Of a stretch of DNA of 64,000 bases, positions 16,123 to 29,697 are shown in pieces. The stretch lies in assembly GCA_045106985.1 (NCBI GenBank), contig JBGCFQ010000005.1:86700-150699 (forward strand), given 5' to 3'. The DNA comes from Pseudomonadales bacterium. Its GTDB lineage: Bacteria; Pseudomonadota; Gammaproteobacteria; Pseudomonadales; JAUIET01. The notes under the pieces are model-generated. The model searched no databases and was not told the origin of the DNA. It saw nothing but the letters and a program-made list of their open reading frames with translations. Both the position numbers and the translations under genes were made by a program. Each line of letters starts with the position of its first letter. Position 1 is the stretch's first letter.

Positions 16123-16701
16123 CTATAAAATCAGATAGCGCCGAGTTGTTCGACAATAGTCTTCGAACGCCGCACCATGAACCCTTCGCAAGTAAGGTTC
16201 CTCTATATTTCTAACAATAAATTCAATGCTAATCCAACAGATTACAGCACAGGCCCAAATCGCTGGCTGCGGTAATGTCACACACATTGCAATCCAGTAG
16301 AGCAGTATTCCGAAGTAAATCGGATTTCTGGATTTTGAGTATAGGCCCGTTAAAATTAGATCAGTGCTTTCGCTTTGTTTTACCCCAATTCTCCAGGAAC
16401 GGCCCATTTGAACTTGGGCAATAACAACAATTGCAATACCGATAAAACCAATAGAAAGAGCAACGAAGCGCACGAGATCGGACACCGTGTTATCAACAGG
16501 AAGTAGACCCGTGTCGTAGAGAACAATTAACACAGTGCTAACCAGAAAAGACAGCAAGAACATTAAGCCGGGAATTTTTTCTGCCAGAGGAGCAGACGAA
16601 CTCGCCAAGCGCGCGCCGTGGTCACCTGTGAACCAAAATTGAATGGCTATCCGACCTATTACGGCAAATAGTATGAATGTAGAGGTAAGGAGTAATGACA
16701 T
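16123..16701 (-). CDS. isoprenylcysteine carboxyl methyltransferase (ICMT)/PEMT-family membrane methyltransferase
   Basis: Polytopic membrane protein with the signature GLYSKSRNPIYFGILLYW...EEPYLRRVHGAAFEDY. Confidence 0.75.
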   Translation of the reverse strand: MSLLLTSTFILFAVIGRIAIQFWFTGDHGARLASSSAPLAEKIPGLMFLLSFLVSTVLIVLYDTGLLPVDNTVSDLVRFVALSIGFIGIAIVVIAQVQMGRSWRIGVKQSESTDLILTGLYSKSRNPIYFGILLYWIAMCVTLPQPAIWACAVICWISIEFIVRNIEEPYLRRVHGAAFEDYCRTTRRYLIL

Positions 16702-17504: not shown

Positions 17505-18917
17505 ATGGCCCTATCAGAAGCTACAAGCTCAGTTAATTTCTTTCTCGACGGTAACTTTGCGCCTGTCTCCGAGGAACGTGACGCGAGTGACATGGAAATT
17601 CGCGGGCGCATCCCTACGGACTTAGCAGGTCACTTCTTAAGGGTTGGGCCAAATCCAGTTCATATTTTTAGCGAACAGGCATACCACACCTTTGACGGTG
17701 ACGGCATGATTCACTCTATTGAGTTTCGCGATGGTTCAGCGCATTACCGCAATCGTTTTGTTCAAACCGAAGGTTTCAAGCTCGAACAGCAACGTGGAGA
17801 CTGGTTGTACAAGGGCATGAATTCGATGATGGACCCTACGCCTTCTCGAGTTCCTGAGGGTGCACCGGCCGATAAGAACCTAGCGAACACCGCTCTTGCC
17901 TTTCATAACAACACACTTTATGCGCTTCATGAGCCGTCGCAACCAACAATAATACAACTACCTGGGCTCGAAACCGAAGGAGCCACTGACTTCAACGGCA
18001 AACTGCAGCACCCGTTTACTGCCCACCCCAAAGTGGATCAACACAGCGGTGAGATGATGACTTTTGGTTATGCCTTTGAGGTACCCTACGTTAACTACTC
18101 GGTTATTGATGCTGCTGGCGAATTGATCCACTCCACGCCTATTACTATTGAGAAGCCAGTCTTCATGCACGACTTTGCCGCGACAGAGAAGTATTCTCTG
18201 TTTCTAGACTTCCCCATTACGCTCGACATAGAACGTGCAATGGCGGGCGGTCCCGCACTGGATTTTGAGCCGGAACACGGTTCGCGTATAGGAGTGATAC
18301 CTCGCTTAGGTACTGATGCCGAGGTGCGTTGGTTTGAAGTAGACACCTGCTCAGTAATTCATACCGCAAATGCTTGGGACGAAGATGACGAGGTTGTTTT
18401 GCAGGCTTCGCGCTCTAAAACCAGCGACATAGCGGGCGCAGGTTTGGCTGCAGAAAATCTGGCGGATACTCAAGGGCAACTCTACCAATGGCGCATTAAT
18501 TTGAAGACTGGAGCTATTAAAGAACAACTGTTAAGCGAGGTGCATTGTGATTTCACTCGAGTGAATGATGCCCTTACCTGTCATAAAACGCGTTACGTTT
18601 ATGGCGCTGTATTTAACCCAACACGCCCATTCACCTTTGATGGTGTGATGAAGTTTGATAACGAAACGCAAACCACAGTCACCTACAGTTACGGCGAAAA
18701 GCGGTTTGGAGGCGAGGTTGTGTTTGCGCCAAAGCTGGGTTCACAGACAGAAGACGATGGCTATCTCATCTGCTTTGTTCAAGACGAGGCCGAAAACCAA
18801 AGCGAATGTTTGATTCTGGATGCGCAGGATGTAGCCGCAGGACCAGTCGCGACAATTTTGGTACCTTACCGGGTGCCGTATGGCTTCCACGCCAGCTGGG
18901 TTGGTGACATGGGCTAG
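17505..18917 (+). CDS. carotenoid oxygenase family protein (carotenoid/stilbene cleavage dioxygenase, RPE65 family)
   Basis: GNFAPV, FDGDGMIH, HPKVD, MHDFAATEKY and GFHASW blocks, including the conserved iron-ligand histidines. Confidence 0.85.
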   Translation: MALSEATSSVNFFLDGNFAPVSEERDASDMEIRGRIPTDLAGHFLRVGPNPVHIFSEQAYHTFDGDGMIHSIEFRDGSAHYRNRFVQTEGFKLEQQRGDWLYKGMNSMMDPTPSRVPEGAPADKNLANTALAFHNNTLYALHEPSQPTIIQLPGLETEGATDFNGKLQHPFTAHPKVDQHSGEMMTFGYAFEVPYVNYSVIDAAGELIHSTPITIEKPVFMHDFAATEKYSLFLDFPITLDIERAMAGGPALDFEPEHGSRIGVIPRLGTDAEVRWFEVDTCSVIHTANAWDEDDEVVLQASRSKTSDIAGAGLAAENLADTQGQLYQWRINLKTGAIKEQLLSEVHCDFTRVNDALTCHKTRYVYGAVFNPTRPFTFDGVMKFDNETQTTVTYSYGEKRFGGEVVFAPKLGSQTEDDGYLICFVQDEAENQSECLILDAQDVAAGPVATILVPYRVPYGFHASWVGDMG

Positions 18918-19176: not shown

Positions 19177-19443
19177 ATGAAGAAGTCACGATATTCAGAG
19201 AGCCAGATTGTTAAGGCGCTGAAGGAAGTTGAAGGCGGTCGGAACGTCAAAGATATGTGCCGCGACTATGGTATATCAGAGGCGACTTACTACAACTGGA
19301 AAAGCAAATACGGTGGCATGGAAGCCTCCGATGTAAAGCGACTCAAAGAGCTCGAAGATGAGAATAGCCGCTTGAAGCAGATGTACGCAGAGCTGAGTTT
19401 GGACAACAGGGTTCTGAAGGATATTGTTGAAAAAAAGCTGTAG
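19177..19443 (+). CDS. IS3-family transposase OrfA (HTH)
   Basis: MKKSRYSESQIVKALKEVEGG...ISEATYYNWKSKYGGMEASDVKRLKELEDEN is typical of IS407-group OrfA. Confidence 0.9.
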   Translation: MKKSRYSESQIVKALKEVEGGRNVKDMCRDYGISEATYYNWKSKYGGMEASDVKRLKELEDENSRLKQMYAELSLDNRVLKDIVEKKL

Positions 19444-20276
19444 CGCCAGCGGTGCGGCGTGAGCTCCACGACCATGCCAGACAGGTTTTTGGTATGAGTC
19501 TCAGACGAGCCTGCCGCCTCGTTGGCATCAGTGACTCAGTGTACCGGTATACACCGAACGCGAATCGAGACGATGAAGTGATCGCGGGATTGCAGTCCGC
19601 TATTGAGCGGTATCCAGCGTATGGGTTTCCGAAGCTATTCAAGATACTCAGGCACTGGGGCCACTCCTGGAATCATATAAGAGTACACAGGGTGTATTGC
19701 GAGTTGAATCTGAATAAGCGAAGGCGAGGCAAGAAACGGCTGCCAATCACTCTGGAAATGCCAATAGCCATCAACCGCTGCTGGTCCATCGACTTCATGG
19801 GCGACAGTTTGTACTGCGGCAGGCGTTTTAGGACGTTCAATGTGGTCGATGATTTTGGTAGAGAAGTATTGGCGATAGAGATCGACATAGGCTTGCCTGC
19901 TGAAAGTGTTGTGCGGGTGCTCGAACGAATAGTCGCCTGGCGTGGCTATCCGAGCAAGATGAGGATGGACAATGGTCCGGAGCTAATCTCTACCACCTTG
20001 GCCGAATGGGCTTAAGATCACAGCATTGAACTTGAGTTTATTCAGCCAGGCAAGCCAACTCAGAACTCGTATGTGGAGAGATTCAACCGCACCTATCGAG
20101 ATGAAATACTGAACATGTACGTGTTCAAAACGCTCACAGAAGTGCGCGCAAGAACTGAAGAATGGATGAACGAATACAACGAGGAAAGACCTCATGATTC
20201 ACTTGGTGATCTAACTCCGTTGGAGTTCATGGTCGCCAGCAAACGGCCAGGCAACTCTAATTTAGCGTGCCACTAA
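19431..20276 (+). pseudogene. IS3-family transposase OrfB (DDE) with an in-frame TAA
   Basis: The -1 frame continues from the slippery site. The DDE domain is recognisable (WSIDFMGD, MRMDNGPEL, SYVERFNRTYRDE). A TAA at 20013-20015 (AEWA*DHSIELEFIQPGKP) falls between the second Asp and the catalytic Glu. Confidence 0.85.
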
Positions 20277-20398: not shown

Positions 20399-22558
20399 TT
20401 AACACCCTAGTCGTGCATTCTTAAGCTGGGTTACTCTACTTTTCTTCGCAAACAAGTCTGCGGGTTTACGAACAACTGGCATTCCCGTCCTTCTACTCCA
20501 TATGACTACCTTATCAGCAAGTGATAATAAGCTTGGATTGTGTGTCACAAAAATACAGGTGATTGGCATAGCTCGAAGTGCATTCATGATCTTTAGTTCG
20601 CTTTCCTTACCAACATGCGCGGTACCTTCATCCAAAAATAGAACCTTCGGTTGCTGGTATAAAGCTCGCGCCATTAGCACGCGTTGTTGCTGCCCAACCG
20701 ATAATGATGTACCCATATCAGTGACCAAAGTGTCAAACGACATCGGCATTCGCTCTATCTCATGCAGTATATCCGCCGCAATACAAACCTGCCGCACGCG
20801 CTTTATGTCGGGCGACAAATCGAAGAATGTTATGTTCTCCAACAAGGAGCCACTGAACAAAGTGTCCTCCTGCATTACTGCGGATATTTGCGCACGATAT
20901 GAACTCATCCCGAGCGATTTCAGATCCATCCCGTCAATCGATATCGATCCAGAACTAGGCTCAGATAAGCCCATAAGTACAGTGAGAAGCGATGTCTTAC
21001 CAGAGCCTGACGCTCCAAATATCGACACGAACTCACCGGCCTCGACGGTCAGGTTTAAGTCCGAGAATATGAGCGGATCGTTATTCGAGTATCTATAACT
21101 CAGGTCGCTAACTTCTATACTGCCTTCAATAGGTAGCAACAGTTTGGATTTACGGTCCGAACCTACTTCCTTCTCGGTTCGAGTGATGTCAGACAATCGC
21201 TCCAGGTGCAGCCCAATCATCAGGTATTCCAGCAATAGATCGACGATAGACGTAAATGACTTACTGAAATGAGCACGGTATGCTATGAATGCAAACAACA
21301 TACCTATTGTCATGCCGCCAGCGAGCACAATTTTGGCGCCTAGATACACAATCAAAATGTACTCGACTCCTTGCGTAACACCGTGCACTGATTCACGGGT
21401 GATATCGAGCCGTTCTACTTTAGCGCCTGTGTCTATAGCTCTAGAAAATTGATTCGCCCATACGGTTTGCCGATCCAACTCTTTGGCAGCCAATTTAACG
21501 CCTTGAACCGACCGAACGGTTTCTATAAAGGTGGACTCCACCTTCGCTTCCGCAACTAAATGTTCCATGTTTGCTGCACGGAGGCTCCTAAACTGAATTA
21601 TCCTGAACGCAGAGTATAGCAATGCCGCAATAATGACGACGGATGCTAGCTTGGCCGAATAGAAAAACATTAAGGCAATTGTTAGAAGAGCGAGCAATCC
21701 GTCGATGATTCCTGAGATGAACCCATTGGTCAGGAAATCCTGCAGTGGTTTGAGCGAACCGACTCTGGATATAAGGTCGCCAATGTGTCGCTTCTTAAAA
21801 TAATCCAGTGGCAGTCGCAGCAGGTGGTGCAACACGCTGTTGCCCATGTTGAAACTGAGCTGATTTGAAATAAACAGGTTGGCGTAGCTCCTAACGGCCG
21901 TCGTCAGTACATTGATGAGTGTTACCGCCAGAAATCCGAGGGCCAATATTGTTACTAGGTCCTTATCGTTCTTTGAAAGTACTTCATCCACGACAACCTG
22001 CATATAGAACGGCATGGAAAGTGCAAATATCTGTACTAGAACCGAAAGAACCAAGACAAGCACTAAAGAGGAACGAAGACCTGCAGTTTGCCCCCAGAAC
22101 GCCAGTAAGCTCAACTTCTTTGAATTATCTTCTTGGCGAAACTCTTTTCTGGGCGCGAGCTCTAGCGCTACACCAGTGAAATGTTTGCTGAAATCGTCCA
22201 AAGAATAGCGTCGAACCCCGACGGCAGGATCGTAAATTTCGATTTGATTAGAGCGAGCTTTCGACAGCACCACAAAATGATCGAAATCCCAGTGTATGAT
22301 TGCGGGCAACTTCAGTTGACCAATGGCCGTCAAGTCCACCTTTACGGGTCTGGCTGTTAAGCCAATGGACTCGGCCAAGCCCATGATTGAGCGCAGGTTG
22401 GCGCCACTGGAAGAGATACCCATGGTTCGTCGGGCATCAATCAAGTCATTGTGCTGGCCGTAATAACTGGCAACCATCAAGACGCAGGCGAGACCACATT
22501 CAGCGGCTTCACTTTGCATGCAAAGGTTGATTTTCCCCGTACGAGAACCATTTGCCAT
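20399..22558 (-). CDS. peptidase C39 domain-containing bacteriocin/microcin ABC exporter (CvaB/LagD type)
   Basis: The N-terminal C39 domain has an intact Gln/Cys (QSEAAECGLAC), His (HWDFDHFVVL) and Asp (IYDPA). Then a six-helix TMD, Walker A GASGSGKTS, signature LSVGQQQR and Walker B VLFLDEGTA. Its start overlaps the HlyD stop (TAATG). Confidence 0.92.
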   Translation of the reverse strand: MANGSRTGKINLCMQSEAAECGLACVLMVASYYGQHNDLIDARRTMGISSSGANLRSIMGLAESIGLTARPVKVDLTAIGQLKLPAIIHWDFDHFVVLSKARSNQIEIYDPAVGVRRYSLDDFSKHFTGVALELAPRKEFRQEDNSKKLSLLAFWGQTAGLRSSLVLVLVLSVLVQIFALSMPFYMQVVVDEVLSKNDKDLVTILALGFLAVTLINVLTTAVRSYANLFISNQLSFNMGNSVLHHLLRLPLDYFKKRHIGDLISRVGSLKPLQDFLTNGFISGIIDGLLALLTIALMFFYSAKLASVVIIAALLYSAFRIIQFRSLRAANMEHLVAEAKVESTFIETVRSVQGVKLAAKELDRQTVWANQFSRAIDTGAKVERLDITRESVHGVTQGVEYILIVYLGAKIVLAGGMTIGMLFAFIAYRAHFSKSFTSIVDLLLEYLMIGLHLERLSDITRTEKEVGSDRKSKLLLPIEGSIEVSDLSYRYSNNDPLIFSDLNLTVEAGEFVSIFGASGSGKTSLLTVLMGLSEPSSGSISIDGMDLKSLGMSSYRAQISAVMQEDTLFSGSLLENITFFDLSPDIKRVRQVCIAADILHEIERMPMSFDTLVTDMGTSLSVGQQQRVLMARALYQQPKVLFLDEGTAHVGKESELKIMNALRAMPITCIFVTHNPSLLSLADKVVIWSRRTGMPVVRKPADLFAKKSRVTQLKNARLGC

Positions 22559-23817
22559 TAGCTTGTTCTCCCGCGTAAGTTGTAGAAGGGCTCAAGCAAC
22601 CACTGCGCTAGACTGCGACTCTCGAGTATTATGTCAGCCTGAAAAGCCATACCCGAGCGCAATGACCTCTCGGTTCCTAACACAGACATGGTTTTGGCGC
22701 GCAGCTTAGCCTTCGCTACATAAACAGAACCCTGTACCTGCATTGGTGAAAGTAGATCGTTGCCTGTGATAGGTGCTTCGGAAATTGAGCTAATTTCGGC
22801 CGGGTGGGTACCAAACTGTTGGTGTGGAAATGCGTCGAATCGAACCCGAATAGTCTGGCCTACCTCTACAAAACCAATCGCGGAACTTGGCAGTAGTAGC
22901 ACGCCCTCTATATCAGAACCCACAGGCTCTATGGATACCAGTGGCTTGTTGACAGCTATTGATTGGCCTAATTCGTACTGCAGGCTTACGACACGACCAT
23001 CGACCGGCGCTACAATAAGCTCGTCCTGCCGGTTTATAGACTCGGTTATTCGGTTTGAAATATCAGACAAAGACGTTTCTATTTCCGCTATACCATTTGC
23101 CGTTCTGTCTGGTAGCTGAGCCAGTTGATAGCGAATCGTATTCTGTGATGATTGCAGCTGCAGAACACTCTGCCTGGCCTCGATGAGCGAGCGTTCCTGA
23201 TCCAGATGCTCCGCCTTCGACCGCAGCAATTCAGACTTTGCAATTGCTCCACTGCGTGCGAGTTTTTCTTTTGAGCGACGTAAATCGCTTAAAACTCCGA
23301 CACGTTGTTGTTGTTTGCGCTCGAGAGACTTCTGCAGCTCTATATTCTCCACAGTTTCAGCGAGTTGCTGCTCTAGCCGAACGTGCTCTCTTTCTTTGGC
23401 CACCCGATAACTCAACAGTCTCTGCCGCAGAGTATTTCGCTGCTTTTTCAGCGAGTTGAGTATCTCCTGAGATGCATCTTTGCCACCTGGGAGCAGCTCC
23501 GAATACGACACTATAGCGAGCGGTTGTCCGGCAACAACGTCTTGGCCATTTTCAACCATCATTTTGCGTACAATCGCGCCACTGCTTTTAGATCGTACTA
23601 CCACCAAGCCGGCGTCCGGGTTTAAGTAGCCTGTCACGGTCTGCTTTCGCGCATACTCGCCGGCCCAAAGAAAAATGCCAGCCACTAGAACAATACCAAC
23701 AATAAGAACTGTTAAATACGTTAGGCCAATAGGCTGAACCCTGGTTGTGTCGCCATAGAACTTCTGCGATGCGTATTGTAACGATTCCGCTCGAAATAGA
23801 TTGCTAACAACACTCAT
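22558..23817 (-). CDS. HlyD-family periplasmic adaptor (CvaA type)
   Basis: N-terminal FRAESLQYASQKFYGD, one TM helix, a long coiled coil, and beta-barrel and lipoyl-like segments. I prefer the start at 23817 (AAGGAGG 6 nt upstream); it forms an ATGA overlap with the upstream gene. The track ORF runs to 23868. Confidence 0.9.
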   Translation of the reverse strand: MSVVSNLFRAESLQYASQKFYGDTTRVQPIGLTYLTVLIVGIVLVAGIFLWAGEYARKQTVTGYLNPDAGLVVVRSKSSGAIVRKMMVENGQDVVAGQPLAIVSYSELLPGGKDASQEILNSLKKQRNTLRQRLLSYRVAKEREHVRLEQQLAETVENIELQKSLERKQQQRVGVLSDLRRSKEKLARSGAIAKSELLRSKAEHLDQERSLIEARQSVLQLQSSQNTIRYQLAQLPDRTANGIAEIETSLSDISNRITESINRQDELIVAPVDGRVVSLQYELGQSIAVNKPLVSIEPVGSDIEGVLLLPSSAIGFVEVGQTIRVRFDAFPHQQFGTHPAEISSISEAPITGNDLLSPMQVQGSVYVAKAKLRAKTMSVLGTERSLRSGMAFQADIILESRSLAQWLLEPFYNLRGRTS

Positions 23818-24641
23818 TGTGCGCCTCCTTCGTACAGCATTTCTGGCACTAAGGGCCAATTGTGCCATTCACTCGGGTAGAGCTTGAGATATCTACCAGC
23901 CGTGTCAATGAGGTCTCGCGCTACCGAATCAAAATAGTCCGCACTGTCTTTAGTGCCTCTTGGCCTTGCAAAACATTGTTGCAGTTCACACTGAATACCT
24001 GAGGGCGAAGATGTGGTGATAAATGGTACTAGCAGGGAATTAGTTATGGAAAAAGCCGTAATATGGGCCTTTACCCATCGAACTCTTCTATTGAGAAGGT
24101 CTGTTTCATAGTAGTCGTTTTGGTCTTTCGGTTGATCATAGAACATAACGACCATCGACTTATTCTGCAGCTCTTTACATACTTGCTGAAAGCTTCGCAA
24201 TCCATTCTGCTCAATGAGTACGACATTAAAAGGTAAGGATTGGATGCTTGTAAGTTGCTCTAGCTGCTTGTACCCCATGCTTTTTGGGTGCACAAGCACG
24301 ACACGCTCGCGTCTAAGCTGAATGGCTAATGCTGTAATAGCTGTGATGTAATCACCCATGTGTATTGTGGCGACGACAATGCCTGCGTCCCTTTTATCGA
24401 TGAATGCGCGCAAACGCTCTATGTCCTGAATTGGTAGCTCATTTGCCTTAAGAACAATGTCTTCCATATTTGCCTTTAGTGTGCTGTCCCAATGTTGATT
24501 AAGGGCTTCCATAGACATTTCCCGGTTTGAAGCGATAAGGTTTGCCATAGTAGGTGACTCTCGTAACATCCATTGCACGCAGTGGGATATCAACTCCTTG
24601 CCTTCGACTGCGCTTATCGCTTGAGAACTGGTGGTTTTCAT
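23814..24641 (-). CDS. divergent LpxL/HtrB-like (lysophospholipid/lipid A acyltransferase superfamily, PF03279-like) protein
   Basis: By-eye alignment to E. coli LpxL: GIVVATIHMGDYITA vs GILLVGIHFLTLELG (the HX4E region); SMVVMFYDQPKD...LVPFIT vs GEVVWYAPDHDY...LVPFVP; C-terminal YLKLYPSEWHNW vs MAPEQYMWLHRRF. No TM helix. The motif reads H-M-G-D-Y-I (consensus HxGNWE), so the catalytic acid is not canonical. Confidence 0.6.
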   Translation of the reverse strand: MKTTSSQAISAVEGKELISHCVQWMLRESPTMANLIASNREMSMEALNQHWDSTLKANMEDIVLKANELPIQDIERLRAFIDKRDAGIVVATIHMGDYITAITALAIQLRRERVVLVHPKSMGYKQLEQLTSIQSLPFNVVLIEQNGLRSFQQVCKELQNKSMVVMFYDQPKDQNDYYETDLLNRRVRWVKAHITAFSITNSLLVPFITTSSPSGIQCELQQCFARPRGTKDSADYFDSVARDLIDTAGRYLKLYPSEWHNWPLVPEMLYEGGAQ

Positions 24642-24775
24642 AATGGCTCTGGATTTGACTGCCTGTGCTTCAAGAGTGGGTTGCTACACCGACACTTACT
24701 TAATGTGTCTTTTTTAGAGCAAGTTTCTCGAGATAGGTCTCAACCTTCAAGTCGCTCGGAAAAGGAAGTCGTTCG

Positions 24776-24806
24776 AAAAAGTATGGAGCCAGGCAAGCCC
24801 AGCCCC
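24776..24806 (-). terminator. candidate intrinsic terminator/attenuator after the peptide gene
   Basis: The minus-strand RNA GGGGCUGGG-CUUG-CCUGGCUCC can form a 9-bp stem (three G-U pairs) with a tetraloop, followed by AUAC-UUUUU. It sits 44 nt after the peptide stop. The U-tract is not directly next to the stem. Confidence 0.3.
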
Positions 24807-24849
24807 ACACAACGTTTACTAATTTTTAGTGAAAAAATCAGTATCGACT

Positions 24850-25011
24850 TTAGTGGTGCTTACGTCTCCACCAGGAGAAAAAGCCTTTAGCTACTTTAAC
24901 GGCAACAACGGCTGCTGCTGCTTTAAATAGGAAAAAGCCGAAAAAGCCACCGCTTACAGCGTCGATTTCTTCTTCGGTCATCGCTTGGATGCCAGGGTTT
25001 TGATCAATCAT
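24850..25011 (-). CDS. double-glycine-leader bacteriocin/microcin-like precursor peptide (53 aa; not in the ORF track)
   Basis: Manual translation gives MIDQNPGIQAMTEEEIDAVSGG/FFGFFLFKAAAAVVAVKVAKGFFSWWRRKHH*. GAGG lies 7 nt upstream of the ATG. The leader fits the LSxxELxxIxGG consensus: G-1, G-2, V-4, I-7, E-8, M-12, I-15. It is first in the operon that ends with a C39-ABC exporter. Confidence 0.75.
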   Translation of the reverse strand: MIDQNPGIQAMTEEEIDAVSGGFFGFFLFKAAAAVVAVKVAKGFFSWWRRKHH

Positions 25012-25368
25012 AATTACACCTCTGTTTAGTTAAATAAATCAAAATTATGCCTCCTAACTATTTAGGCTGCGCAGTGATAGTACAATAAATAGCCAATGAA
25101 AAGACAGTGATGTTGCTACCGAGTATCGATAAAAAAGCCTATATATATAGCCTTTTTACGAAATTCGGTAGATATGAATCGTGAGGGAGAAGTATGGTTA
25201 GATTAGGGCGAAGTGATTACTGAAAGGCGAAGGAGTGTTGAATTAAAATTTACATTCCAATGGCTAAAAATAGACGAGTCAATTTTACAAATTTTCCGCG
25301 AAAAATTGAAATTGGGAAAAACTGTTTCTCATATTGCCCTATTGATGAAACTATTTTTTTTCACTAGT

Positions 25369-26301
25369 TCACTTCAGTCTTTGCACTGTAGAAATATGCG
25401 ACATAGGTTTTCTGTAGATCGAAGGCACTATGCCAACTCTGCTTCGAAAAAGTTCACTGAATCGAGATTGACTTTGATATCCGCATTGCAGCGCTATCTG
25501 ACCAATTGTCAGTTTTGTGTTGTCGAGCAAGTATAATGCGTGCTCTAGCCGAGCCTCATCCTTTATTTCCTGCAAACTTATACCTTCTTTGGCAAGTCTT
25601 CGCCGCATGGTCGACTTGCTCATTGAGAGTTTAGAGGACAGAATATCAACGTTGTTTTCTGCTGAGAAATTCTGGGAAATAATATTTTTCACGCTGTGCT
25701 TCAAAGAGCGTTCAAACATCAACCCTGGTATATCTTGGTAACCTTCTGCGCAAAGAAGGTCTATAACTTCTTTTCGACGATGTGAGTAATCGGCGCTGGG
25801 CGAGCGTGCGGCCCATTCTAAAAATTGTTTTAGGCACATGGCGAACCTGTCGCTAATTGCGCCTTGTACATGATTTAGCATCGAGCTCGAAACACCATAT
25901 TTCTCAGTGCAATCCCTATCCTCAAACTCTATTGCGATTACCATGTGTCTTTGCTCTTCGGTTTTTTCGATAATCTTGAACTCGGTTTTCCGTGGTAGAA
26001 AAAGAAAGCTCCCAGCGGAGCAGATAGTATGTTCTCCGTTATTTATGGAGCATTCGCCAATGAGTACAATAAGAAGTAGGGGTTTGCTGTGAATGGATTT
26101 CTTTTGCCGTATTGAATCGTTCGATGAATACAGGGAGATTGGCGAGCACTCTGTGATGCCGTCCAGTTCCTCAAACGAAGATATCAGGCTAGTTATCGCT
26201 GCGTTTGAATACTCCGATACGACTGGTTGTACTTCTGCTTCCGTCGGTTTCATGTATCTAAGCTTTTCAATTCTCATGTTTTTCGACCTTTCTTCCGCCA
26301 T
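25369..26301 (-). CDS. AraC family transcriptional regulator
   Basis: C-terminal double HTH (STMRRRLAKEGISLQEIKDEARLEHALYLL...IALQCGYQSQSRFSELFRSRVGIVPSIYR) with a cupin-like N-terminal domain. Confidence 0.88.
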   Translation of the reverse strand: MAEERSKNMRIEKLRYMKPTEAEVQPVVSEYSNAAITSLISSFEELDGITECSPISLYSSNDSIRQKKSIHSKPLLLIVLIGECSINNGEHTICSAGSFLFLPRKTEFKIIEKTEEQRHMVIAIEFEDRDCTEKYGVSSSMLNHVQGAISDRFAMCLKQFLEWAARSPSADYSHRRKEVIDLLCAEGYQDIPGLMFERSLKHSVKNIISQNFSAENNVDILSSKLSMSKSTMRRRLAKEGISLQEIKDEARLEHALYLLDNTKLTIGQIALQCGYQSQSRFSELFRSRVGIVPSIYRKPMSHISTVQRLK

Positions 26302-26402: not shown

Positions 26403-27260
26403 TCAGGACCTACCCAAAATTCGTCTTAATTGAGATTGCGCTCGCGTAAATCTAATCTTCGATGCGAATCTTCGGCGCTTTTCGAGTGGGCCGACCCGAA
26501 AAACAAAATGTGCACTACCAATTTGTATCTGATCCATGTCACCAAGATAGGACGACAGCTTTCTGACCCCGTTGACATATATTCCATTAGTAGAGACGAG
26601 ATTAACCATTTTCCATCGCCCTGCAGCGCTGATAAGCTGCGCATGCCGTGTCGATACTGTTTCGTCGTTTATAACTATGTTGCAGGCCTGATCACGCCCA
26701 AGTTCCCACACAGAAACCTTGGGAGCAGTGCTCATTTCCAAATCTATTTGAGACGTCACTGATTGCACACCTAGTCGTATCAAACGGGCAGTGTTCTTCT
26801 TTGGCGCTTGTAATTTATGAAGTGCGAGGTCTACTTCCAAGAAGGAATCAGCGAAGCTGTCGCAAAATACGGTCTCGCCAATACTATTGTGTTGCTTCCA
26901 GCAGCCTGGAATTTGATTGTCAGCCATTTGTGTAGGTAGTAGTGTGTATTCATGCGTTGCAAATCTAAGCACGTCACCTGGGTGCACTCGGCTCTTTGTC
27001 GTCACCGGCTTACCATTGAGGAAAGTAGAATTGCAGGATTTCATATCCTCTAACACTACCAGTCCTTTTCGACAGTACACGCGCGCATGCAAGCGAGAGA
27101 CTGCAGGATCTGCGATAATTAGATCGCAACTCGGTGCTCTACCTACAGAGAGAGTCGACGTTAGCTCGATCTTGAGTCCTTCGAAGTCTATAAGTTGATA
27201 CTCCTCTGTTTCTCTCGATTTGGCACTTACCTTCGAGCCAACTGATATAGGTTTATTCAC
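26403..27260 (-). CDS. protein with two FHA domains
   Basis: FHA1: VGRAPSCDLIIADPAVSRLHARV...STFLNGKPV. FHA2: LGRDQACNIVINDETVSTRHAQL...TNGIYVNGVR. Confidence 0.85.
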   Translation of the reverse strand: MNKPISVGSKVSAKSRETEEYQLIDFEGLKIELTSTLSVGRAPSCDLIIADPAVSRLHARVYCRKGLVVLEDMKSCNSTFLNGKPVTTKSRVHPGDVLRFATHEYTLLPTQMADNQIPGCWKQHNSIGETVFCDSFADSFLEVDLALHKLQAPKKNTARLIRLGVQSVTSQIDLEMSTAPKVSVWELGRDQACNIVINDETVSTRHAQLISAAGRWKMVNLVSTNGIYVNGVRKLSSYLGDMDQIQIGSAHFVFRVGPLEKRRRFASKIRFTRAQSQLRRILGRS

Positions 27261-27441: not shown

Positions 27442-29697
27442 TCAAGAGCTCGCGGCAGAGTTGCTTTCAAAGCTGCTTTCCGCTTCACGAAGCGAAGCCT
27501 GATCCTTGCCAGTCGATAGCATGCGTGACAATTCGAGTTCTCTAAATGTCCTGGCGTCATCGGCTTGCACTCCTTGTTCAACTTCGTTAATAAGGATGTT
27601 GCGTAGCTTTTGCAGTCTTCGGTTGCCCGGCATCAAACGTTGTCCACGAGACAAAAACACGTCGGCCTTATCAAGCGCACCGATTTTCATTTCAGTTTCC
27701 GCCAGTGCTGCGTACTCATTTCCTATTGCTTTAATGCCGTCCCATGCTTCCGCATTTAACGGGTCAATACTTAGGACCTGTTGATAGATTTTCTCCACAT
27801 TTTCTATAAGACTATCTTGCGTGCCACTGACGCCAGATATGAGTCGTGCTTCAGCTAGAAATCGCCTGATACGATCAGCTTGTTCGGCGTCCTTTTTCTT
27901 CTGGCGTGCAATCAATTGTTTTGTCGATTGCGGATTCTGGGTTTTCGCTGAATTAGTCGCTAATTGGCGGTCGCTTCTTTCAAGGTCGGCGATAAGTTTA
28001 TAGGTGCTTTTTCCTTCTGGATGCGTTAAGTCAACCTGGTATGCAATCGCTATCAGACTTCTCGCTTTTGCATAGTCCTTTACTATGGCCGCTTTTTGCG
28101 CTCTGTTGAGATACGAGCTGGCAACGGCTCGAATTCCGCCTAATGCCAACTTGTTTTCTGGATCAATTTGAAGCACCGCCTGGAATCGGCTAAATGCATC
28201 ATCTCCGTCCACAGTCTTGTATCGATTTTCTCGCATTGCTTTGTTAGCCTGCTCAATGCTGGTAGCTATTAGAGTCGCCTTTTCCTCCCGACGCGCTTGG
28301 TGTTGTTCGGTTTGGAACACCAATGCTCTTAGCTCTTGTTGTTGGCCCAGCAATTCAGCGTCATCTAGATAGAATGCTATTTGGGTAATGCGATCAAGCC
28401 CGGCACTGGCCGCTGCGCTGTCACCGGCGGTTATGTGCGCCTTTGACTCGGCCAGGTAATTTTCCAGCAAGTCACGAACTCCACTAATCGCTTCCTGATT
28501 CTGTGGGTCCCACGCAAGCGCAGTAGTAAAGAAGAATTGGGCATTGTCGTCGAGCGGCGAATGGAGCCGCTGATCAAGTAGCGCGGCCTTTCCTTGCTGT
28601 ACTAGATTGAATACGGTTTGATCTTTAACTGAACTTACCTTTGGTGTAACTTCAGCTGTAGGCGCATAGGATGCGTCATTGATCGCCCAGAGACCGCTTA
28701 CGATTGTTGCTCCGCACATAAAACCAAGAGCCACTTTGCCTGCTTGTGCCGCTGTTCGATATTTGACACCTTGTTTGCGTGATTCGCTATTTTTCGTTTT
28801 TCGCTCAATACCATCGTTAACCAGGCCTTTCTTTGGCCGGGTATAAAGCGTGCGGTCACTTGCGTTTGGATCTGAGTTTAAGCGATGCATATGGATTTCT
28901 AGCGCCCTGTCCAAAGCAACAATAAATGCCTCGCCACAGGAGAATCTGTCGTCCGCATTTTTTGCTAACGCTCTATCGATTACGGGTTGAAATGCCTCAA
29001 GATCTTCTCGCAGCGTGGGAATGCTAGAGAAAACGTGCTCATGGGCAATACCGATTGCTGAATCGGCTGTGTATGGAAGTCTTCCCTCGAGAAGCTCAAA
29101 CAATATAACGCCAAGACTGTAAATATCTGATCGACGCTCAAGTGGCTTGCCGCGAGCTTGCTCAGGACTCATGTATGCAGGCGTACCCAGTACCGACCCT
29201 GCGATAGTAATTTGAGTTCCGGCATTGGTTGGCCGCGCAATACCGAAATCACTAACCACCGCGCTGCCATTCTCGCTTAACAGTACGTTGGCTGGTTTTA
29301 TATCACGGTGAATAAATCCTTTTTCGGATGCATAGTGCAATGCTGATGCAACTTCTCTTACTATTGTTGCGCTGCGCTCAAGCGGCACAGGCGATTGCAT
29401 TAGGTTTTTGAGATCGCCACGATTGAGGTATTCCATGGCAATGTAGAGAGTACCGTTGTGTTGGCCTACGTCGTAGACAGAGACAATGTGGCGATGCGAT
29501 AACTTGGCGATAATTCTCGCCTCACGCACGAACCTGACAGCATAGGCTCTTTTGCTTGCGCCGGGATCCGAAATTATCTTCAGTGCAACCTGGCGCTGAA
29601 TTTTCTCTTGCATAGCCAAGTAGACCGTTGCTTGGCCGCCTCTACCGAGGACTTTCTCGATACGATAACCTGGCAAATTCGGGTATTGCATGTCCAA
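27442..29697 (-). CDS. Hanks-type serine/threonine protein kinase, membrane-anchored, with a TPR-like extracytoplasmic region
   Basis: GRGGQATVY, VALK, HRDIKPANVLL, DFGIAR and GTPAYMSPEQ. One TM helix (VALGFMCGATIVSGLWAI). About 400 aa of repeated helical TPR-like sequence follows. Confidence 0.9.
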   Translation of the reverse strand: MDMQYPNLPGYRIEKVLGRGGQATVYLAMQEKIQRQVALKIISDPGASKRAYAVRFVREARIIAKLSHRHIVSVYDVGQHNGTLYIAMEYLNRGDLKNLMQSPVPLERSATIVREVASALHYASEKGFIHRDIKPANVLLSENGSAVVSDFGIARPTNAGTQITIAGSVLGTPAYMSPEQARGKPLERRSDIYSLGVILFELLEGRLPYTADSAIGIAHEHVFSSIPTLREDLEAFQPVIDRALAKNADDRFSCGEAFIVALDRALEIHMHRLNSDPNASDRTLYTRPKKGLVNDGIERKTKNSESRKQGVKYRTAAQAGKVALGFMCGATIVSGLWAINDASYAPTAEVTPKVSSVKDQTVFNLVQQGKAALLDQRLHSPLDDNAQFFFTTALAWDPQNQEAISGVRDLLENYLAESKAHITAGDSAAASAGLDRITQIAFYLDDAELLGQQQELRALVFQTEQHQARREEKATLIATSIEQANKAMRENRYKTVDGDDAFSRFQAVLQIDPENKLALGGIRAVASSYLNRAQKAAIVKDYAKARSLIAIAYQVDLTHPEGKSTYKLIADLERSDRQLATNSAKTQNPQSTKQLIARQKKKDAEQADRIRRFLAEARLISGVSGTQDSLIENVEKIYQQVLSIDPLNAEAWDGIKAIGNEYAALAETEMKIGALDKADVFLSRGQRLMPGNRRLQKLRNILINEVEQGVQADDARTFRELELSRMLSTGKDQASLREAESSFESNSAASS

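Follow-up and report, generated by a model that had tools for sequence, protein, structure and literature searches.

The window analysed here is a stretch of 64,000 nucleotides from a Pseudomonadales bacterium (GenBank assembly GCA_045106985.1, contig JBGCFQ010000005.1, positions 86,700 to 150,699 of the forward strand), and it holds a peptide export cluster of four minus-strand genes. These encode a precursor peptide with a double-glycine (GG) leader, a 275-aa acyltransferase-like protein, a HlyD-family membrane-fusion protein (MFP) and a peptidase-containing ABC transporter (PCAT) with a C39 domain (Table 1). An earlier note on this DNA had described the four genes, and all of their open reading frames (ORFs) are present where it placed them. 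The export machinery and the type of peptide are ordinary; the new element is the conserved partner of LPLAT fold.

Table 1. Features of the export cluster and its immediate surroundings, in window coordinates
Feature	Position	Strand	Details
GG-leader precursor gene, 53 aa	24850..25011	minus	ORF; GAGGTG ribosome-binding site 7 nt upstream
Spacer, peptide gene to acyltransferase-like gene	24642..24849		208 nt
Terminator-like hairpin in the spacer	24781..24810	minus	13-bp stem, 4-nt loop, T-run
PatA/LpxM-fold acyltransferase-like protein, 275 aa, no transmembrane segment	23814..24641	minus	
HlyD-family MFP, 419 aa from the ATG at 23817	22558..23817	minus	Pfam HlyD_3
PCAT, 719 aa	20399..22558	minus	Peptidase_C39 + ABC_membrane + ABC_tran
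AraC-family regulator just upstream of the cluster	25369..26301	minus	HTH_18/HTH_AraC
Degraded IS3-family element abutting the 3' end of the ABC gene	19177..20276	plus	HTH_Tnp_1, rve and rve_3 on three ORFs

The last three genes are translationally coupled, as the earlier note had read them: the acyltransferase-like gene and the HlyD gene overlap as ATGA, and the HlyD stop and the ABC start overlap as TAATG. The longest ORF for HlyD begins at 23868, but we set the start at 23817 because that ATG has an AAGGAGG Shine-Dalgarno sequence 7 nt upstream and makes the ATGA overlap with the acyltransferase stop. The HlyD protein matches the type I HlyD model TIGR01843 at 1e-36 and has one N-terminal transmembrane segment. 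In the ABC protein, Pfam finds Peptidase_C39 at 1.5e-33, and the nearest NCBIfam models are bacteriocin-export ABC families. The Gln, Cys, His and Asp catalytic positions of the C39 domain, which had been said to be kept, are intact in an alignment of the window exporter with seven related exporters. No small membrane ORF of the immunity type and no TolC-type gene was found in the cluster or its flanks, again as first described.

The precursor joins a leader, MIDQNPGIQAMTEEEIDAVSGG, which ends ...EEEIDAVSGG with a canonical GG, to the core FFGFFLFKAAAAVVAVKVAKGFFSWWRRKHH (FFGFF...RRKHH). The core has 31 residues, an average mass of 3657.3 Da, an isoelectric point (pI) of 12 and a charge of +6. 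Its sole hydroxyl residue is Ser24, within the segment GFFSWWRRK, and its four lysines are Lys8, 17, 20 and 29. The window peptide gives a weak, sub-threshold match to TIGR03949, the model for class IIb bacteriocins of the lactobin A/cerein 7B type, and a similarly built peptide at a related locus, L020, matches the same model above its curated cutoff.

The 275-aa protein has few recognizable relatives. On its own it matched no Pfam family at E <= 0.1, no relevant NCBIfam model, those for LpxL and LpxM included, and nothing in a sequence search of the PDB, and a word-indexed search of 5.8 billion proteins returned only the protein itself. With the family profile that word-indexed search found only 7 proteins, and looking up the exact sequence of the window protein among contigs gave no record. 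An exhaustive HMMER search of 1.84 billion representatives found 68 proteins at E <= 1e-3, the best of them 29% identical (E = 2e-27). The family is small and highly divergent, with an average column identity of about 24% in an alignment of 58 sequences. Its members all come from uncultured metagenome-assembled genomes (MAGs) or metagenomes, where they are named "hypothetical protein", "lysophospholipid acyltransferase family protein" or "lauroyl/myristoyl acyltransferase".

A search against PF03279 (Lip_A_acyltrans) and a structural comparison had been proposed in the earlier note. The first finds nothing with the window protein alone, yet 54 of the 58 family members match PF03279 individually (best 1.8e-18), and against the PDB the family profile finds PatA at 1.3e-15 and LpxM at 8.9e-5. 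Because the match belongs to the family members and the profile and not to the protein alone, its membership of the PF03279/LPLAT superfamily is, by sequence, transitive via the family. The predicted structure agrees with this placement. An AlphaFold2 model built on the family alignment has a predicted local distance difference test score (pLDDT) of 91.4 and a predicted template modelling score (pTM) of 0.90. The top 14 Foldseek matches to it in the PDB are PatA or LpxM only (E = 1e-12 to 3e-10), with template modelling (TM) scores of 0.70-0.73, or about 0.72, and an alignment identity of 11-15%; the next match falls to E = 4e-3 and a TM score of 0.31. Only PatA and LpxM were therefore matched significantly. 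A GNAT or HlyC fold was found neither by Pfam, which gives no match for the protein, nor by the structure search.

His94, Asp169 and Trp259 are invariant in the 58-sequence alignment, which has the motifs T-I-H-M-G-D-Y, D-L-P and P-x-Q-W-x-H-W. In the family profile alignment, His94 falls on the general base of PatA, His126 of "PHSGNW" (chain index 122), which in PatA is assisted by Glu200 (PMC8519569). The catalytic histidine of LpxM is His122. Asp169 follows the strand at 163-167 of the model, and the HMMER alignment pairs it with PatA Asp202, two residues from Glu200. The sixth position of the HX4D/E motif is non-acidic: the window protein reads H-M-G-D-Y-I where the family consensus has H-M-G-D-Y-L. 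This is compatible with catalysis, because VexE has a Tyr at the same position and is yet active by way of His466 and Asp532, the equivalent of PatA Glu200 (PMC9597891). The conservation pattern of the family is that expected of an active PatA/VexE-type enzyme, and activity is predicted on this ground. An invariant His94 and Asp169 over 58 divergent sequences would be hard to explain otherwise, so the family is probably catalytic.

The earlier description of the protein as LpxL/HtrB-like holds for the PF03279/LPLAT fold but not for LpxL proper. The protein has no N-terminal membrane anchor (its hydropathy maximum of 1.52 is below the transmembrane threshold) and no HX4E motif, and the family profile favours PatA over LpxM by ten orders of magnitude. 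Judged by these sequence features, it is PatA/VexE-like and not LpxL-like.

The association of this enzyme with an exporter is observed well beyond the window. We collected 31 related loci from a GTDB genome scan, a metagenome scan (2 loci) and exact look-ups of family representatives; they amount to 23 distinct acyltransferase-like genes at 90% identity. At 19 of the 23 distinct loci the HlyD gene is the next one downstream and has the same orientation, as a rule with stop and start codons that overlap. Of the others, L009 has it adjacent but divergent, L024 is too short a sequence, and it is absent from L006 and L011. Wherever there is enough sequence, the next gene after HlyD encodes a C39-ABC protein (15/15 loci). 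Even the most remote of the sampled members, P0045 (E = 1.5e-8), P0048 (E = 2.9e-8) and P0044 (E = 1.2e-8), keep the linkage. Across 11 complete trios, pairwise identities correlate between the enzyme and the ABC protein (Mantel r = 0.82) and between the enzyme and HlyD (r = 0.75; p about 2e-4). The sub-clusters are identical in the three matrices, while identities range over 43-76% for the ABC protein and 23-63% for the enzyme. Since the identities of the three proteins correlate, the trio has been inherited as a unit over deep divergence. The association of enzyme, HlyD and PCAT is far beyond chance, and the view that the acyltransferase-like gene belongs to the export operon and is not there as a chance neighbour is borne out by the recurring order. 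The hosts are mainly marine MAGs of Pseudomonadales/Gammaproteobacteria, and one family member is present in 40 index blocks, TARA Oceans assemblies among them.

Peptide genes recur beside the enzyme too. With a relaxed leader pattern, GG-leader ORFs were found near it at 8 of the 23 distinct loci, with the window as an additional one; L014 has a partial, C-terminal fragment. The earlier note had put its operon to the test of recurrence beside both the exporter genes and such ORFs, and both associations recur, at 19/23 and 8/23 loci respectively. The peptides of L004, L006, L007, L009, L015/16, L020/21 and L022 have the leader consensus R-E-L-T-x-E-E-I-D-x-V-S/A-G-G, and the window peptide agrees with them in E-I/L-D-x-V-S/A-G-G. 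The position of the peptide gene varies: it is upstream of the enzyme gene in the window, L020, L022 and L015, after the PCAT gene in L004 and L007, and after the enzyme gene in L006 and L009. The full order of peptide, enzyme, MFP and PCAT is found in the window, L020/L021 and L022.

The cores follow two designs. The first has an aromatic N-terminus, a helix rich in Ala, Val and Gly, and a cationic, His-rich tail, and is represented by the window, L020 (YVWWAVGVGAAVV...KLIKKWKNYRNNHGGHGNHGGHHGYSH) and the L014 fragment. The second is microcin-like and rich in Gly, Ala and Ser, has no Lys and often ends in an acidic C-terminus; it is seen in L004, L007, L009, L015 and L022, and also in L006, where the core runs to the contig end. 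The Gly-rich peptides at L004 6049-6357, L007 7897-8142 and L015 8475-8684 have the acidic tails …EPDEDS, …AREEDS and …EERDDC. In class IIb microcins, it is Ser-rich C-termini that receive a siderophore. Beside peptides of the second design, at L004, L006 and L022, there are small ORFs with 2-4 hydrophobic segments. A small inner-membrane protein with several transmembrane segments is the classical, validated type of microcin immunity protein (PMC12219008).

Two arrangements stand apart from the trio. In MAG SRP216583_co2_46, the enzyme gene at L006 (1589-3218) is accompanied by a membrane ORF of 91 aa and a GG peptide, but an exporter is lacking, and the same MAG carries an enzyme paralogue in a trio of enzyme, HlyD and PCAT with no visible peptide (L008, 9935-12227). 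The enzyme thus tracks the peptide as well as the exporter, because one copy has a peptide without a pump and the trio is separate. In a metagenome (JGI sample 3300043331), the distant family member P0063 is encoded in the order PCAT, GDSL lipase/esterase, PP-binding protein (acyl carrier protein, ACP) and PF03279 enzyme, with overlapping ACP and enzyme genes. This arrangement implies a dedicated acyl donor, and with it real acyl-ACP chemistry in a PCAT cluster.

The window copy is the most divergent member of the family, at 23-31% identity to every other complete copy. Random decay was rejected as the cause, since several of its departures from the consensus are shared with P0017, the enzyme of L020. 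Both have R118 changed to H, G192 to A and Q258 to E, both have lost the "GP" of WV.GP, and in both L170 has become a polar residue. L020 is also the locus with the same peptide design as the window and an AraC-type neighbour. The window and L020 enzymes look like a specialized sub-clade.

The reading we prefer, to which we would give a little less than an even chance, is that this is a class-II-microcin-type cluster whose LPLAT-fold enzyme acylates the precursor before export. The first gene of the export operon would provide a peripheral PatA/VexE-like enzyme that takes an acyl thioester, either acyl-ACP or acyl-CoA. At the cytoplasmic face, its His94/Asp169 dyad would transfer the acyl group to one of the side chains in the core, which is hydrophobic and membrane-seeking, before the leader comes off. 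In the window peptide the likeliest acceptor would be Ser24, in the interfacial GFFSWWRRK segment, with Lys8, 17, 20 and 29 as alternatives. The C39 domain of the PCAT would then cleave the GG leader, as its intact catalytic residues lead one to expect, and the lipidated peptide would leave through HlyD and an unlinked TolC-type channel. We infer the peptide as acceptor, the residue modified, the acyl donor and an antibacterial activity of the product from this arrangement.

The comparison of the cores bears on the bond that would be formed. N-acylation of Lys throughout the family was rejected, as the Gly-rich cores of L004, L007, L009, L015/16 and L022 have no Lys. If the chemistry is family-wide, O-acylation is therefore more likely, and it fits the fold, because PatA, LpxL/M and VexE are all O-acyltransferases. 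Extended to the family, the proposal would be that LPLAT enzymes of PCAT-HlyD operons O- or N-acylate GG-leader peptides before export, which would make a new class of lipidated microcins, or of peptides that are ribosomally synthesized and then modified post-translationally (RiPPs), widespread in uncultured marine Gammaproteobacteria. We hold this broader claim still more tentatively, as a plausible generalization that may well fail.

Several observations weigh against peptide acylation. The core peptides have no common acceptor residue or motif, and the Gly-rich ones lack Lys. No GG-leader ORF was seen within 4-10 kb at seven loci (L001, L003, L005, L010, L013, L026 and L028). Loci of this kind make up about half of those that are well sampled, and their trios are set among housekeeping genes. 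The characterized enzymes of the fold acylate a lipid, a glycolipid or a sugar nucleotide, never a peptide (PMC9597891, PMC8519569), and the enzymes reported to date for fatty-acylated RiPPs are of the GNAT type (PMC13647313). Of the 29 positions with at least 75% conservation among the other family members, the window copy retains just 17, compared with a median of 27 for those members. Its activity may thus be altered or reduced, given that it is the most divergent copy, has 12 of these 29 positions changed and has lost the "GP". The correlation between sub-clade and peptide type is also incomplete, as P0002 at L014 combines a tail like that of the first design with a consensus-type enzyme.

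The peptide-less loci bring in the best of the alternatives, an unlikely one in our estimate, in which the acceptor is not a peptide but a membrane lipid, glycolipid or nucleotide-sugar, and the product serves or travels with the PCAT and HlyD while the GG peptides pass as unmodified cargo. This would suit the known members of the fold, which act on lipids, glycolipids or UDP-N-acetylglucosamine (UDP-GlcNAc) (PMC9597891, PMC8519569). It would also suit the greater constancy of the exporter pair, to which the enzyme is tied more tightly and more universally than to a peptide (19/23 loci against 8/23), and yet the ABC proteins so linked have an intact C39 peptidase, which points to GG-peptide cargo. 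Many trios lie in housekeeping settings with no peptide in view. At L028/L029/L030 (8001-12371), L005 and L010, for instance, the trio has a conserved neighbourhood with genes for homoserine O-succinyltransferase and short-chain dehydrogenases. TARA Oceans assemblies are rich in the L028-L030 lineage (P0048), which has no GG-leader ORF within 8 kb, so its substrates are encoded elsewhere or are something else. At L026 (1114-3666), a gene for an MMPL-family (lipid/RND-type) transporter is immediately upstream of the P0045 trio. L006, on the other hand, lacks an exporter but has an immunity-like ORF and a peptide along with the enzyme, no PCAT is known to need a lipid cofactor, and CvaAB-type systems work without such a gene (PMC12219008).

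A role in self-protection is a less probable alternative. The enzyme would remodel lipid acylation in the envelope of the producer, in lipid A or another glycolipid, against a membrane-active peptide. Resistance to cationic peptides is known to arise through altered acylation of lipid A. The strongly cationic core of the window peptide would fit such a role, as would the lack of a separate small membrane immunity ORF in the window cluster and in L020; relatives with non-cationic, Lys-free peptides, however, keep the enzyme in addition to separate immunity-type ORFs with 2-4 transmembrane segments. Some trios have no peptide nearby, the enzyme has no LpxL-type membrane anchor and is nearer to PatA than to LpxL/M, and those microcin immunity proteins that have been validated are small and reside in the inner membrane (PMC12219008). 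With no transmembrane segment of its own and such ORFs standing separately by the peptides of its relatives, the enzyme is not immunity-like. Given these ORFs and L006, peptide acylation is modestly favoured over immunity. Least probable, and in our view rather far-fetched, is an inactive or repurposed accessory of LPLAT fold that, as a chaperone or docking factor, keeps hydrophobic precursors at the membrane and passes them on to the PCAT, for although the canonical HX4D/E acid is missing, the window copy departs from many conserved positions and translational coupling to the exporter suggests a stoichiometric partnership, the invariant His94 and Asp169, the activity of VexE with the same non-acidic motif position and the coupling of P0063 to a dedicated ACP all speak against it.

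The surroundings of the cluster add some detail on its regulation and history. The spacer after the peptide gene folds better than 200 of 200 shuffles (z = -2.9), and its hairpin may be a leaky attenuator that gives a high ratio of peptide to enzyme transcript. No terminator-like hairpin was found in L020 or L022; a conserved attenuator after the precursor gene was accordingly rejected, and we give the hairpin low functional weight. The AraC-family protein is a possible but unproven regulator of the cluster. An AraC-type gene (with an Arabinose_bd domain) is also found beside the most similar locus, L020/L021, but phmmer detected no homology between the two regulators at E <= 1e-5. Between the AraC and peptide genes, at 25131-25157, there is an AT-rich imperfect palindrome with A- and T-run flanks, AAAAAGGCTATATATATAGGCTTTTTT, which was not called by the terminator scan and could be a bidirectional terminator or an operator. 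Upstream of the AraC gene and on the same strand are genes for a protein with two FHA domains (26403-27260, minus) and for a Ser/Thr protein kinase that carries TPR repeats at its C-terminus (27442-29697, minus).

At the other end, the IS3-family element has an intact orfA (HTH_Tnp_1) and a split orfB (rve at 19452-20015 and rve_3 at 20073-20276). The G+C content also falls, from about 50% in the rest of the window to 42% at 24-26 kb, and together with the remnant this suggests that the part of the DNA with the cluster in it was rearranged or acquired. The remnant marks the cluster boundary, and downstream genes, an immunity gene for example, may have been displaced or lost. Remnants of insertion sequences or transposases also flank L015 and L022. 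When the cluster was compared with plasmids by blastn, the sole match was 65 nt long and attributable to chance. Beyond the remnant are an RPE65-family carotenoid-cleavage oxygenase (17505-18917, plus; E = 1e-137) and a PEMT/ICMT-type membrane methyltransferase (16123-16701, minus), which are probably unrelated neighbours.

The earlier note knew of no characterized GG-leader system with a PF03279-type enzyme, and we have found none either: a full-text literature search turned up no account of such a pairing. Acyltransferases go unmentioned in a survey of class II microcins from 2025 (PMC12219008) and in a 2011 census of cyanobacterial bacteriocin clusters, and the RiPP acyltransferases listed in a paper from 2026 are all GNAT enzymes (PMC13647313). 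Class II microcins are now recognized as abundant across Gram-negative bacteria. A conserved LPLAT fold that co-diverges with peptide-cleaving exporters would be either a new route to genetically encoded lipopeptides, useful in engineering, or a novel principle of accessory function or immunity in type I peptide secretion. Uncultured marine Gammaproteobacteria commonly carry the module, and competition among ocean microbes may thus be shaped by it. As a test case the window is compact, with four genes in 4.6 kb and a single hydroxyl residue in a 31-aa core.

The closest known systems in terms of export are the CvaAB-type clusters of class II microcins (MccV, MccL, MccN and the 2025 set; PMC12219008). 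They have the same GG-leader precursor with a hydrophobic core, the same C39-ABC exporter with active residues, the same HlyD adaptor and an unlinked TolC. The adjacent small multi-transmembrane ORFs of the immunity type are likewise seen in relatives of the window cluster, whereas the window cluster itself has none that is recognizable. CvaAB-type clusters have no gene of acyltransferase fold, while the export operon described here has a PF03279-fold gene fixed in first place, and the hosts are marine Pseudomonadales/Gammaproteobacteria MAGs in place of the Enterobacterales of class II microcins. The only known modification of class II microcins is the C-terminal siderophore of class IIb (PMC12219008).

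In terms of product, the fatty-acylated RiPPs (selidamides, lipolanthines, goadvionins and lipoavitides; PMC8784127, PMC13647313) come nearest, as cluster-encoded acylation of ribosomal precursors, some with GG-type leader sites, is the very outcome proposed here. Their enzymes are all GNAT-superfamily N-acyltransferases, and no LPLAT/PF03279 fold has been reported among them. The HlyC/TAAT enzymes that accompany HlyBD show that an acyltransferase encoded with an ABC/HlyD type I system can acylate a secreted polypeptide from acyl-ACP; their fold is different, and the 275-aa protein has no HlyC-family Pfam match. The RTX toxins that they activate are large, carry their signals at the C-terminus and are acylated at internal Lys residues, and the C39-like domain of the exporters is inactive. 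The C39 domain here, unlike that of RTX systems, is predicted to be active, and the substrates are small GG-leader peptides, several of them without Lys.

The enzymes that share the fold serve other pathways. PatA (PDB 5f2t/5oce) acylates a mannose of phosphatidylinositol mannosides, and LpxL/M (LpxM, PDB 5knk) are membrane-anchored and acylate lipid A. VexE resembles the 275-aa protein in its LPLAT fold, its catalytic His and its non-acidic sixth motif residue, and Asp169 is a candidate counterpart of its topologically distinct Asp532. It is likewise encoded in an ABC-export locus, that of the Vi antigen, and lipidates an exported cargo by way of a non-lipid acceptor (PMC9597891). It differs in having a TPR domain, in acting on UDP-GlcNAc and in serving a polysaccharide exporter. 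Unlike the family described here, neither VexE nor PatA nor LpxL/M is linked to a PCAT or to ribosomal peptides. In genetic architecture a close match is raxX-raxSTAB of Xanthomonas (PMC6637879), which has the same four parts: a GG-leader precursor, a tailoring enzyme, an MFP (RaxA) and a PCAT (RaxB). RaxX is a hormone mimic and not a hydrophobic, microcin-like peptide, and RaxST is a tyrosyl-protein sulfotransferase unrelated in sequence to the 275-aa protein, but it modifies the RaxX precursor before the PCAT cleaves and exports it (PMC6637879), the same order of events that we propose for the acyltransferase-like enzyme of the window.

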